Positions 1 to 5,656 of a stretch of 5,656 bases of DNA are shown one piece after another. Under the pieces are notes generated by a model. The model did no database searches, had not been told where the DNA came from, and saw only the letters and a program-made list of their open reading frames with translations. Where the stretch lies: NCBI RefSeq assembly GCF_003334765.1, contig NZ_QOWT01000063.1; one strand, written 5' to 3'. The DNA is from Escherichia coli. Its GTDB lineage: Bacteria; Pseudomonadota; Gammaproteobacteria; Enterobacterales; Enterobacteriaceae. How positions within the stretch are numbered: the stretch's first letter is position 1; each line of letters opens with the position of its first letter. Made by a program: the position numbers and the translations under genes.

Positions 1-42
1 GAGCGGTTTTTCAATTGCCTCAATGGCATCAGACGGATTCAT
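1..42 (-). CDS. Partial CDS (first 14 codons only, continues past the left edge); probable N-terminus of a YeeP/YkfA/YfjP-type island GTPase
   Basis: The minus-strand ATG at 42-40 reads MNPSDAIEAIEKPL and stays open to position 1. This matches my recollection of the N-terminus of the CP4-type prophage GTPase family. Its position after a cargo region also fits that island type. Only 42 nt are visible and the identity rests on memory. Confidence 0.45.
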   Translation of the reverse strand, partial: MNPSDAIEAIEKPL

Positions 43-58
43 ACATGTATTCCCGGTG

Positions 59-98
59 AAAAAAGACAAAACCCCGCGCACCGGAAAGGTGGCGGGGG
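59..98 (-). terminator. Rho-independent terminator downstream of the 387-aa ORF
   Basis: The minus strand reads CCCCGCCACC-TTTCC-GGTGCGCGGGG (plus 72-97). The stem is CCCCGC/GCGGGG plus CACC/GGTG with one bulged G. It is followed directly by TTTTGTCTTTTTT (plus 59-71). The hairpin starts 28 nt after the TAA stop at 128-126. Confidence 0.8.
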
Positions 99-125
99 AT
101 TCACGGAAATAATATCTGTCTGAAA

Positions 126-1277
126 TTATCTGGAATCGATTTGGCTGTTCTGCCTGGTTGCCACCAAATCATGGTACGCCTGCTCAATCATTTCATTCAG
201 CAGTTTTTTTGGGAGGACACCACGACTTCGGGCAATACTTTCAAGCTGTTTGTGGATTTTTCCGGACAGTTTCAGAGGGACGGAACCATCAGCACGTTCA
301 TCACGCCTTTTTTGTTGCTCCCGGGCACTTTTCAGCTCATCAAGAAGAATCGCTTTATGCTGAATCCTGGGGGCCTGGAAGGAGACCTGCGTAAACTTCG
401 CTCTGTTCCGTCTGGGATTACTTTCCAGTAAAAACTGTACCTGTTGCTCATTCCAGCCCTCCCAGTTATCAAACGTGGCGCAAGCAAACCAGTATTTCTG
501 CTCCGGGGTAAGGGGATTCAGCGGGGTTCCCACACACCGGACCTGCATGGCGTTCCATAACCAGTCACACTGTTCACTGTCCCTGCTGTCCACCCACGAA
601 AAGGGGGAGGGGTAATCATTGTTTATGCTGGCCCATTCAGAGAATACTGAGTTGATAATCGTCCTCGTAGCCTCTGGTCCGGATTTCAGCAGGTAACTGG
701 AGCAGAACCATATAATTTCACGGTAGATTTTATCCGGATGCACGGTGCGCATCGGCTTTTCTCTGGGACCGGCAATCTTCGGTTGCGATGGAAACCCCGT
801 GGCAAACCGCAGATGTTCCGGGGGCATTCCTGAACGTTTTTCAGGAATGGGTGTGAGTCCTGCGTTTCTGGTCTTTTCCGCTTGTCCGGTATTGCCTCCG
901 GCCGGAGTGTTGTCGGGAGTATCTTCCGGAGGCGAGGTGTTTTCATTAGTTGGGGGAACAACAGCAGAACTGTCCATCTCCGGAATGGGTTGAGGGGCAT
1001 AATCACTGTGGTAGCCAGGGGAAAGCGTTAAGTCCCGAAGGGTGACATCAGGTTCCGGGCAGTGAGTGCCACCGGGAGTGAACGGGAGTTGTTGCTTTTG
1101 GGAGAAAAATGTATTGTGAATGCGGGTATACAGCTGGAACAGAAAAAAATAAGATGCCCGTGGTTCTTTTTTTAACCACTGTGTATATTCCTCTATGGCA
1201 CCGAGCTGTTGTTTGTGCCGTTTTACAGCATCGATATACGGACAGCTGGTGCAGATATCATCCAGTTCCTTTCCCAC
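126..1277 (-). CDS. Hypothetical modular protein (383 aa from GTG 1277; 387 aa if GTG 1289), with a C-terminal ribbon-helix-helix-like motif
   Basis: This 1164-nt open frame is by far the longest in the window. There is no ATG in the first 104 codons. GTG at 1277-1275 is preceded by GAGGTG (1287-1282), and stop codons lie in frame upstream of 1289. The translation shows an N-terminal ~70 aa with CTSC, then a Pro/Thr/Asn/Glu/Gly-rich low-complexity stretch (about aa 95-185, nt 734-1007). A Trp-rich segment follows (8 W between about aa 194 and 280), then a basic stretch QQKRRDERAD. The end reads VPLKLSGKIHKQLESIARSRGVLPKKLLNEMIEQAYHDL, which has a strand-helix-helix pattern. I recognise no family. 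Confidence 0.8.
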   Translation of the reverse strand: MGKELDDICTSCPYIDAVKRHKQQLGAIEEYTQWLKKEPRASYFFLFQLYTRIHNTFFSQKQQLPFTPGGTHCPEPDVTLRDLTLSPGYHSDYAPQPIPEMDSSAVVPPTNENTSPPEDTPDNTPAGGNTGQAEKTRNAGLTPIPEKRSGMPPEHLRFATGFPSQPKIAGPREKPMRTVHPDKIYREIIWFCSSYLLKSGPEATRTIINSVFSEWASINNDYPSPFSWVDSRDSEQCDWLWNAMQVRCVGTPLNPLTPEQKYWFACATFDNWEGWNEQQVQFLLESNPRRNRAKFTQVSFQAPRIQHKAILLDELKSAREQQKRRDERADGSVPLKLSGKIHKQLESIARSRGVLPKKLLNEMIEQAYHDLVATRQNSQIDSR

Positions 1278-3673: not shown

Positions 3674-4276
3674 TCAACTGTGAGCGGCATCAACCGATGT
3701 ACGGTATGCCATAAGCACGTACTGATCCATCAGATTTGTCAGTGGTTCACTCTGACCCTGACGTGCAATGATCCATTGCTCCAGATCTTTTTCTGATTTG
3801 TGTTTCAGGTTTTTCGTCCAGTCGTCAAGGCTGTTTCCGGTCATTAAGTCAAGCCAGCAGAGCCAGACCAGTTTGAGACGTAACTCCGTGCCGCCAAACT
3901 GACGGAAGAGGCTGATCAGTTTGTTTGCCAGAGAATGTTGCTTCAGGCGCTCACATTCAGACAGCAGGATCCCTTCCAGCATCGGATGATGAACCAGCAG
4001 GTGTTCGCTGGTGCATAAATTCACCACCAGATCATCATCCAGGGACGGGGAGCTCCGTTTGTCCGGACCATAAATCAGCCGGTGCAGACTCTGGGGAACG
4101 ATGGCAATCTCCGGTTTTTCGCCATTGAATGACACCCACCCGGGCGTCAGATTATGGAAATAGTAGATATTCGGATGACACACGCCCCATGATACGGCGT
4201 GCCGGGTGAAGCCGGTCAGCCATTTCTGGTAGTTTTCATGGAGCAGCTCGTAACGGGTCTGATACTGTTGTTTCAT
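3674..4276 (-). CDS. Hypothetical protein (200 aa), co-oriented with and downstream of the AlpA-family gene
   Basis: The open frame is 618 nt. The GTG at 4291 and the ATG at 4282 sit on or too close to the SD. GAGGAA (4289-4284) lies 7 nt upstream of the ATG at 4276, giving MKQQYQTRYELLHENYQKW.... The stop TGA is at 3676-3674. By position I expected a YagK/YfjJ (inovirus Gp2-like) protein. The sequence lacks the HYH-type motif I associate with that family, so I leave it unassigned. Confidence 0.8.
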   Translation of the reverse strand: MKQQYQTRYELLHENYQKWLTGFTRHAVSWGVCHPNIYYFHNLTPGWVSFNGEKPEIAIVPQSLHRLIYGPDKRSSPSLDDDLVVNLCTSEHLLVHHPMLEGILLSECERLKQHSLANKLISLFRQFGGTELRLKLVWLCWLDLMTGNSLDDWTKNLKHKSEKDLEQWIIARQGQSEPLTNLMDQYVLMAYRTSVDAAHS

Positions 4277-4304
4277 TTTCATATTCCTCACGGGGGATAA
4301 CAGG

Positions 4305-4369: not shown

Positions 4370-4576
4370 TTACAGACGGGACTGTGCAATACGCGCCTGC
4401 AGCCAGGCTTCCACTTCACTTTTCAGCCAGCGGGAGCTGCGCCCCATTTTGATGGGCGCAGGAAAGCCCCCATCTTTGATGAGTTTGTCAAACCACTTAT
4501 CGGTTAGGCCGGTCAGTTGAGTGATAAACGCCATGTCGACCATCTGGTCATCCATCAGCGAAACTGGGGTAGCCAT
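4370..4576 (-). CDS. alpA: AlpA-family (phage/island) transcriptional regulator, 68 aa
   Basis: The translation is MATPVSLMDDQMVDMAFITQLTGLTDKWFDKLIKDGGFPAPIKMGRSSRWLKSEVEAWLQARIAQSRL. It fits the AlpA/Phage_AlpA pattern: an HTH, then G.FP.PIK.G, then W...E.E.W. GGAGGAA (4590-4584) lies 7 nt upstream of the ATG at 4576. The ORF track's 135-aa version starts at a GTG with no SD and adds a non-family extension. The stop TAA is at 4372-4370. Confidence 0.9.
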   Translation of the reverse strand: MATPVSLMDDQMVDMAFITQLTGLTDKWFDKLIKDGGFPAPIKMGRSSRWLKSEVEAWLQARIAQSRL

Positions 4577-5656
4577 GAGAATGTTCCTCCGGATGTTGTT
4601 AAACCAGCCGGTGTGGTCATGAAAACAGCGCGCCACCTTCACCGGCATAACAACCGGGGAGAAACGTAAAAAATAATCGGGAATGCGGCTGTCCGGAGAT
4701 AAACGGGGGGATTGCGATGGCAGAGCCGTAGCGGAATCCCGGAGGGGGGTGTTGCGAAAAGATGCTTCCGCACGCACGCGCGATAAAGAGGGGATAGTTT
4801 TCGTGAGGACAGGGAGAGAAGCAGGCGTTCTGATAATTGCAGAGTTGTTTTCGGAGGTGGTTACAGTGAGTCAGCCCGTTCCTGGCGAGCAGGAGACTGA
4901 TATCACCGATGGGATAAGGTTGTCTGATTGGTATTATAAATATAAGAAGTCATCAGAGAGTAACGTAAAGGATTTGCCAGAATAACCTAAGAGAGTAAAT
5001 CTCTCCGGTAACAGAGCGCTGTGAAGCATTCTGTATCAGAGTGCAGATACATGAACGCTGATGCGTAAAATCAGCAGTGACACGCCAGCTCCCCCTATGC
5101 CCATTCCTGTATAAGACATGAACTGAGTGTATTAATGCTTCTGCCCTGAGACTGAGCCGGTGAGTGAGGGGCTGAGAAATCCCTCTTGACACAGCTCTAA
5201 CCAGAAATACTTCCCCGGTTGTTGCGGTGCGTCCGGATCCCCGATAACGGAACACTAAGGCTGTATTGCGGGACACCGGGTAAGTAGCAGCCCGTAAGGC
5301 GTTCTGTCAACGCCAGAAAAAATGATTTCCCACACGCGTTATAGACTCACTCCTGTGGACCTGGAAGCCCGTAACTCTGCGGTTGCCCACTGACTGACGG
5401 AACTGACCGCAAATTTTACGAGTGCGTGCTGGGCTTCAGTCTGGTCACCTGAGCGTTCGGTAACGGAGGCGCGGGCGGTAATAGGCTGATTTTCAGGTAT
5501 TACCGGCTTACAGCGTGTGGTTGATATTGAGGGGCTGTGAGTTTCGCGTATTTGTCAGAAACCCAGACGAGTTTTCCTGTATGGGACGAAATAAGGCAGC
5601 GGCAATACCTGGAAAAATTTAATATGGTATGAAGGAGAACCTGTCGGTTACGCTTA

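Follow-up and report, generated by a model that had tools for sequence, protein, structure and literature searches.

A portable leader of CP4-type island GTPase genes couples a jumbo-phage-type promoter motif to an intrinsic terminator

Background

The Psid and PLL promoters of the satellite P4 are activated by Ogr of phage P2 or by delta of P4, and combine host RNA polymerase (RNAP) with a phage activator and an upstream dyad. Jumbo phages that encode their own RNAP follow another plan: according to Sokolova et al., every one of them has a conserved AT-rich motif near -10 before its presumed early operons, and where transcripts have been mapped this motif is the early promoter of the injected virion RNAP (PMC7598289). 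In phage AR9, the mapped consensus for this polymerase is AAATATATATTAT-(6N)-G(+1) (PMC5312081). Here we examine the leader of a GTPase gene located at one end of a 5,656-nucleotide stretch of Escherichia coli DNA (contig NZ_QOWT01000063.1 of assembly GCF_003334765.1); 'the window' refers to this whole stretch. To judge from its sequence, the leader carries a motif that is identical in type to an intergenic repeat of SPN3US-like jumbo phages, and the motif is followed by a strong intrinsic terminator. We consider it probable, although well short of certain, that the region 134..40 is a portable leader cassette of the GTPase of CP4-like islands, made up of a phage-type promoter and then a terminator gate that is off by default, with infection by an SPN3US-type phage as the likeliest trigger.

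The locus can be compared with four described systems. It resembles RNAP-encoding jumbo phages' early promoters in its AT-rich core centred on -10, followed by 6 nt and a G start as in AR9; unlike them, the island copy is chromosomal, precedes a gene without a phage homolog and has a strong terminator directly after it. As in the cassettes governed by Q (lambda PR'-tR') and by Pseudomonas AlpA (PalpB-tB, PPA0807), bases between -35 and -10 are conserved, an intrinsic terminator precedes the first ORF (97..72 here, after the predicted start at 102 and before the ATG at 42), the arrangement would be off by default and the element also carries an AlpA-family gene. It differs from those cassettes in that its leader has no ABE/QBE consensus, its terminator is much closer, at about +5, and no evidence ties the island AlpA to the site. 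Like P4 with Psid and PLL, it would be a chromosomal mobile element with promoters built to a phage transcription specification and firing on infection, the latter being putative here; in contrast to P4, the whole island promoter copies a class thought to be read by a phage multisubunit polymerase, and the island element is not known as a jumbo-phage satellite. Finally, a GC-rich hairpin with a U-tract on the coding strand, between co-directional genes, is what an ordinary Rho-independent terminator or 5'-leader attenuator looks like. Unlike in attenuators, however, no alternative anti-terminator structure or leader peptide was found in the leader, Rfam covariance models (riboswitches included) gave no match at E <=1 anywhere in the window, and a sensor would have no space in the roughly 5 nt between the predicted start and the hairpin. 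On these features the cassette would fall in the class of phage-responsive or antitermination-gated island promoters.

Results and discussion

Layout of the GTPase leader

The leader lies on the minus strand between a 387-aa orphan open reading frame (ORF) and the GTPase gene, and consists of the following features (window coordinates).

99..134, minus: conserved 36-bp promoter-type motif (cATTCcAgATAATTTCAGACAGATATTATt-TCCG-TGAAT), which matches an intergenic repeat of SPN3US-like jumbo phages
126..128, minus: TAA stop of the 387-aa orphan ORF, inside the conserved motif
109..114, minus: -10-like hexamer TATTAT (TATCAT in some relatives), read directly and part of the 36-bp motif
102, minus: G predicted as the start of transcription, 7 nt beyond the -10-like element (invariant in 31/31 aligned leaders; the +1 G of ATATTAT-(6N)-G; its predicted counterpart in K-12 yfjP is 2,767,642)
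72..97, minus: terminator hairpin CCCCGCCACC-TTTCC-GGTG(C)GCGGGG, of 10 bp with one bulged C and the loop UUUCC, supported by folding and compensatory changes
59..71, minus: U-tract TTTTGTCTTTTTT, from direct reading and a simple terminator scan
43..58, minus: spacer with a weak Shine-Dalgarno (SD) sequence GGGAA (54..50), possibly the 3' side of an outer helix whose other strand is 115..100, from sequence and folding
40..42, minus: ATG of the GTPase, the same start as in the NCBI annotation of an identical copy
1..42, minus: first 14 codons (MNPSDAIEAIEKPL...) of a YfjP/YeeP/YkfA-family GTPase gene, cut at the window edge

The distance from the end of the orphan ORF to the hairpin is 29 nt, 16 nt separate the U-tract from the ATG, and the 36-bp motif occurs once in the window. 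The original prediction, which was made from this stretch alone, had described a strong terminator, the GGGAA, a GTPase start at 42 and a TATTAT at 109-114 without a -35 element, and all of these lie where it put them, on the minus strand. The start codon agrees with the identical copy in E. coli 720632, which is annotated from that ATG. The hexamer matches the sigma70 -10 element at five of six positions, including A at position 2 and T at position 6, and the window copy has neither a sigma70 -35 at 16-18 nt nor an extended -10 TGn; the best -35 candidate, TTCCAG with a 15-nt spacer, is poor, and a sigma70 consensus scan calls no promoter. A mini-ORF in another frame (ATG at 46, MYESV, stop TGA; window 43-46 and 26-28, minus strand) overlaps the first codon of the GTPase gene; only leaders of the Escherichia type have it, and it is probably a chance occurrence.

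The leader travels with the GTPase gene

When window positions 400..1 were compared by megablast with 5,426 complete E. coli genomes, the matches fell into two classes, one confined to the orphan gene and the other to window ~140..1. Matches of the latter class stand in front of the GTPase gene, with differing DNA upstream of them: a divergent YfjI gene plus 1.2 kb without an annotated gene, an unrelated 305-aa gene in strain HS, or IS66 debris and a divergent small ORF in O157:H7. One orphan-gene homolog elsewhere has neither the GTPase nor the cassette block downstream. Similarity between islands starts abruptly at about window 140, some 14 nt ahead of the TAA they share. With AGATAA (window 126-134), the A-rich cassette edge provides a stop codon for whichever gene is fused upstream, and the unrelated gene of strain HS uses the same TAA.

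We also read the 160 nt upstream of GTPase relatives at 41 loci in species-representative genomes (44-96% protein identity), from genera that include Citrobacter, Salmonella, Klebsiella, Enterobacter, Serratia, Yersinia, Hafnia, Photorhabdus, Pectobacterium and Pantoea. The cassette was found in more than 15 genera, at GTPase identities down to 44-60%; at those identities the hairpin sequence is entirely different yet still paired, and the 36-bp motif is almost invariant. About 98 of 120 metagenome matches precede the same GTPase. Among the complete E. coli genomes, 4,251 (~78%) carry the motif, at a median of two places per genome (range 1-7), a count that fits GTPase leaders and no wider use of the motif by the host. 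E. coli K-12 has one cassette before yfjP and a second before the decayed ypjI, where it now heads the yfjX operon.

The terminator is thus part of the GTPase leader and not of the orphan gene, because the cassette precedes the GTPase gene whatever the upstream DNA. This changes how the junction is to be read. The original prediction saw in the terminator a gate that couples or insulates the orphan and GTPase genes; the idea of a gate survives in our best reading, but a role confined to this gene pair was too narrow, as the cassette also precedes GTPase genes that have no annotated co-directional gene upstream. For the same reason, read-through from the orphan gene finds no support as the normal source of GTPase mRNA. 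Across islands with different cargo, a comparison that the original prediction had proposed, the terminator is kept, but it is not specific to the orphan-gene/GTPase pair.

Three loci show what can befall the cassette. Upstream of ypjI and yfjX-lfgA in K-12 CP4-57 (locus L049, 22440-22560), a full cassette with the hairpin CGGCAGAATC/GATTCTGCCG, a T-tract and an SD sequence is followed by 'MSNSEGW*', apparently the decayed 5' end of a GTPase gene, and heads an operon of antirestriction, RadC and toxin-antitoxin genes. In Klebsiella sp. R390 (L021, 190-2510), the leader and the first ~30 GTPase codons are duplicated around a restriction-modification pair (methylase 608-1483, endonuclease 1480-2109), which suggests that cargo, here a defence system, was inserted at the cassette by recombination. 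In E. coli W21 (L006, 2989-3010), an IS2 lies inside the U-tract, at the equivalent of window 64, between the hairpin and the GTPase SD sequence; it cuts the gene, a truncated pseudogene in the annotation, off from its cassette, and outward IS2 transcription could then drive the GTPase.

The same motif in SPN3US-like jumbo phages

From 31 distinct aligned leaders of more than 15 genera we obtained the nearly invariant consensus cATTCcAAATAATTTCAGAyAGATATTATC-NNNN-GTGAAT, which includes the TATTAT and is far better conserved than the GTPase protein. The option that transcription starts immediately before the hairpin, one of two left by the original prediction, is therefore the one favoured, with the start itself predicted: TATTAT is the -10-like core of this motif. 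An exact-motif scan of viral contigs recovered GTPase islands and two matches in the 241-kb Erwinia phage vB_EamM_Caitlin, which precede unrelated genes and have weak hairpins or none. Over the whole Caitlin genome, the core TTCAGAYAKATATYAT occurs 21 times at <=2 mismatches, always on the + strand (21/21), against 0-1 occurrences in shuffled genomes. All but one of these sites lie 45-100 nt upstream of a gene (20/21; the remaining one is inside gp40). The downstream genes include none with an annotation as virion structural protein, several sites head operons with the phage's split RNAP subunit genes, and a terminator-like hairpin is found at only 2-3 of the 21 sites. BLAST searches with the 34-nt motif found it at 5-10 intergenic places in every SPN3US-like phage, among them Salmonella phages SPN3US, SEGD1 and the SPFM series, coliphages vB_EcoM_EC001 (where one copy reads GAGATAGATATTATCTACGTGAAT) and Lh1B, Proteus phage 7 and many Erwinia phages. 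In vB_EcoM_EC001 (L060, 165-200), a hairpin-plus-T terminator follows the major capsid gene and a motif copy comes directly next.

The similarity extends beyond the core. With a weight matrix (PWM) built from the 21 Caitlin sites alone, the phage sites themselves score 29-49 bits, island leaders 27-51 bits and the window 34.2 bits; no other window position exceeds 5.9 bits, and ordinary background does not reach 12 bits in ~600 kb of bacterial flanking DNA. Beyond these, values of >=15 bits, all between 15 and 19, were given only by diverged cassettes, namely that of K-12 ypjI and five loci (L039-L042 and L044, at ~1400-1500) with the diverged motif TTTTCAGAACTAAATCATTTTCGTGAGC; in L039, this motif is followed by a hairpin and T7 and stands before a two-gene unit of a WYL-HTH regulator and a distant GTPase (41-43% identical). 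The information-content profiles of island and phage sites are correlated (r = 0.79, and r = 0.74 in flanks that were not used for site selection), and the same consensus base is found in both sets at eight of eight informative flank positions. Both have the layout of A-rich upstream sequence, TTCAGAyAGATATTATC, four free nucleotides and a conserved GTGA, the four-base gap being free in each set, and a covariance model made from the island leaders retrieves phage promoter regions over the full length of the model. The island sequence ATATTAT-(C/T NNNN T)-G also has the same architecture as the AR9 consensus. By analogy with phiKZ and AR9, the motif of SPN3US-type phages is presumed to be an early promoter read by the virion RNAP; we found no paper with transcript mapping for this phage group. 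In the literature searched, the motif has neither been described for these islands nor been linked to phages.

The GTPase itself has no tblastn match in 50,697 phage records. We thus rejected joint capture of a phage gene and its promoter; simple co-inheritance with such a gene does not account for the promoter.

Strength and conservation of the terminator

The terminator in the window is real, far beyond what chance would give. The region 97..59 is a GC-rich stem-loop followed by a U-rich tract on the transcribed strand, as an intrinsic terminator requires, although a simple terminator scan picked up just the inner 5 bp of the stem. Taken alone, the hairpin 97..72 has a folding energy of -18.5 kcal/mol, and the 91-nt region one of -29.5 kcal/mol (z = -3.4 versus dinucleotide shuffles). 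At least six unrelated stem sequences occur across Enterobacterales with pairing retained by compensatory change, and the variants include CCCGCATCC/GGATTGCGGG, ACCTCCGAcGCC/GGCTCGGAGGT, AACGGCGAATCC/GGATTCGCCGTT, GTGGCGG/CCGCCAC and CGGCAGAACC/GGTTCTGCCG. In a covariance-model alignment, which is fitted to the structure and hence biased toward it, 92% of cells are paired and seven of nine pairs show compensatory changes; none of 500 column shuffles reached this level, and slid controls gave at most 56%. An unfitted MAFFT alignment shows the same trend more weakly. As indels shift the hairpins out of register when RNAalifold is run on the plain MAFFT alignment, we relied on a per-sequence hairpin table and the covariance-model alignment.

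Most of the 35 tabulated leaders have a T-rich tract after the hairpin; the tracts of the Pectobacterium group are weak, and none was parsed in L028, L038 and L047. Two metagenome contigs (L081, L170) have the motif and the hairpin (CCCTAG...CTAGGG) and no U-tract, and in some lineages the hairpin may have an importance of its own. For the paralogous yfjP leader, a locus that may be silent, Adams et al. list no 3' end in their K-12 Term-seq tables; the cassette is thus not an abundantly expressed small-RNA gene under laboratory conditions.

A second structure was considered and rejected as a conserved RNA element. The duplex between the leader and the SD region has an energy of -12 to -13 kcal/mol (z = -2.6 to -3.1), and across leaders the sequence just upstream of G102 tends to complement the SD region, with z mostly -1 to -4. 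The partner segments of this outer helix (115..100 with 58..43) vary by clade, however, variants in O157 and STEC313 weaken the pairing without compensation, and self and cross pairings are nearly alike (-11.2 versus -9.7 kcal/mol). It is suggestive only as a possible second layer of control, in that read-through transcripts would carry the anti-SD segment and so hide the SD sequence, and transcripts started at G102 would not.

A proposed mechanism for the leader

From the observed anatomy of the leader, its conservation and covariation, its independence of the upstream gene and its match to the phage repeats, we infer a start site, termination in vivo and a trigger. A dedicated phage-type promoter with TATTAT at 114..109 would start RNA at G102, and the hairpin would begin about 5 nt into the transcript, ahead of the weak SD sequence and the ATG at 42. 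The terminator would halt transcripts that host RNAP brings in from the variable upstream cargo, including the orphan gene here, and would also halt host sigma70 transcripts begun at the cassette's own -10-like element, so that the GTPase-led module would be silent. Expression would then require strong firing of this promoter or passage through the hairpin. Infection by an SPN3US-type phage is the likeliest trigger because the motif has been kept to the specification of the phage promoter class across genera, and it might act through the phage's own RNAP or through an early factor. In a stronger form, which we put forward only tentatively, CP4-type islands of Enterobacterales would wiretap jumbo phages: they would carry a copy of an SPN3US-type virion-RNAP early promoter, silenced in the host by a terminator at about +5, and their module would be transcribed only when a phage polymerase is present in the cytoplasm.

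Several observations need to be set against this mechanism. The virion RNAP is believed to stay enclosed in the early-infection vesicle, 'preventing transcription of host genes', and it is excluded from the phage nucleus (PMC13282480). Its access to a chromosomal promoter is therefore doubtful, unless newly made virion RNAP is present in the cytoplasm or some leaks out. SPN3US-type phages use ordinary hairpin-plus-T terminators after their own genes, and the phage polymerase may accordingly stop at the gate too. The assignment of the phage motif to the virion RNAP comes from the phiKZ/AR9 analogy. At the locus itself, the base after the -10 element is T in the window and C in the consensus, the -35 region is poor, and the transcript's start and 3' end are sequence-based predictions. 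The absent 3' end in the K-12 yfjP leader fits silence, and gives no positive support for promoter activity or for termination.

Alternative explanations

The best surviving alternative, which we regard as unlikely, is that the motif is a host-RNAP promoter governed by island proteins: either a processive antiterminator of the Q/AlpA type would load at the invariant spacer between -35 and -10, or a WYL-HTH (YfjR-like) repressor would bind an overlapping operator, and the phage copies would be sites that are also used by a phage or island regulator, for example for titration or repression. The layout does parallel that of Pseudomonas AlpA targets, in which the element lies between -35 and -10 and terminators follow 26-54 nt after the start, before the first ORF (PMC7969949). 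An AlpA-family ORF (Pfam PF05930) is present at window 4370-4573, WYL-HTH regulators are conserved just downstream of, or together with, the GTPase, and the invariant bases lie outside the sigma70 contacts. There is also evidence that host polymerase recognizes these spacers. In genomic SELEX (systematic evolution of ligands by exponential enrichment), Shimada et al. found sigma70 holoenzyme bound in vitro to the K-12 rnlB-yfjP and perR-ykfA spacers, with a predicted promoter TTGAAA-15-TATCAT (PMC3946193). In the yfjP spacer this is the same element as ours, its TATCAT being the -10 of the motif; we checked the identity in that spacer, and the ykfA spacer is taken from the published study alone. 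However, the AlpA consensus GGGACGN5GGTA is absent from the leader and its matches across the window are at chance level, and upstream of intA, which in CP4-57 is the gene known to respond to AlpA, the motif was not found. Nor would control by island proteins explain why more than 20 copies of the motif stand before unrelated genes in jumbo phages whose transcription is held to be independent of host RNAP.

It is very improbable that the hairpin is simply the 3' terminator of the upstream gene, with the GTPase expressed from minor read-through of the orphan gene and the conserved upstream sequence reflecting shared ancestry. The short distance of 29 nt between the orphan ORF and the hairpin would suit such a role, as would the lack of any sigma70-type promoter call between that ORF and the ATG, and in this window the terminator surely ends the orphan transcript too. 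Yet the cassette precedes the GTPase at loci without an annotated co-directional upstream gene, and the orphan-gene homolog found elsewhere lacks it. Moreover, near-invariance of the motif alongside a drop of the protein to 44% identity and a complete turnover of the hairpin sequence is not something that neutral ancestry can give.

We hold it to be highly improbable that the short terminated RNA (~40-45 nt, comprising GAAUC, the hairpin and a U-tail) is itself the product, as a regulatory RNA, a signal or a decoy transcription unit, with the GTPase made from rare read-through. Small-RNA genes do have a terminator directly after the promoter, the leaders tend to complement the SD region, and phage polymerases appear to obey ordinary terminators. 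On the other hand, only about 5 nt are transcribed before the hairpin, too few for a seed, the conserved bases are found ahead of the predicted start, Rfam gives no match, and the K-12 tables list no 3' end in the yfjP leader. We rejected a small-RNA gene on the lack of a seed region after the predicted start and of that 3' end. A type III toxin-antitoxin layout was likewise rejected, as window 1-600 contains no tandem repeats of the kind found at such loci and the motif is present in a single copy.

Least probable of all is a recombination junction between variable cargo and the island core in which the motif has no transcriptional role, since homologous exchange requires no specific sequence and the position-by-position match to the phages, the shared low-information 4-nt gap and the compensatory evolution of the hairpin would go unexplained, even though similarity between islands begins abruptly at ~140, the Klebsiella leader and 5' gene end are duplicated on either side of a restriction-modification pair and cargo genes have a common stop codon inside the motif.

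The GTPase module and neighbouring genes

For the identical GTPase copy in E. coli 720632, the annotation gives a 'GTPase family protein' of 290 aa. The protein matches Pfam MMR_HSR1 at 7.7e-13 and is of the YfjP/YeeP/YkfA type. Assignment to a known defence family was rejected, as the only PADLOC match among such families, to LeoBC, is weak (1e-5) and confined to the P-loop region. Downstream genes of the GTPase-led module encode WYL-HTH regulators, DUF932 proteins and YfjS/YafY-type proteins.

Elsewhere in the window, the AlpA-family ORF (PF05930) and then a 205-aa ORF without a family match lie on the minus strand (4370-4777 and 3674-4291), co-directional with the GTPase, and ~2.4 kb without long ORFs separate them from the orphan ORF. 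In the identical copy of E. coli 720632 (L001), pseudogene fragments are annotated upstream of the orphan gene.

Conclusions

The terminator by itself is ordinary; what is new is a terminator-gated jumbo-phage promoter motif before the uncharacterised GTPase modules of CP4-type islands. If host polymerase reads the motif, it would be an unrecognised regulator site that is common to islands and jumbo phages. If a phage polymerase reads it, an island gene would be wired directly to the host-independent transcription system of a jumbo phage, which would point to a function for the uncharacterised YfjP/YeeP/YkfA GTPase modules of CP4 cryptic prophages. Should the islands indeed wiretap jumbo phages, the cassette would serve either as a defence switch thrown by infection or as the point of control for an element parasitic on them. 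A motif read by phage polymerase would thus bear on whether mobile elements parasitise or specifically sense jumbo phages, which a 2026 review counts among the open questions (PMC13282480).

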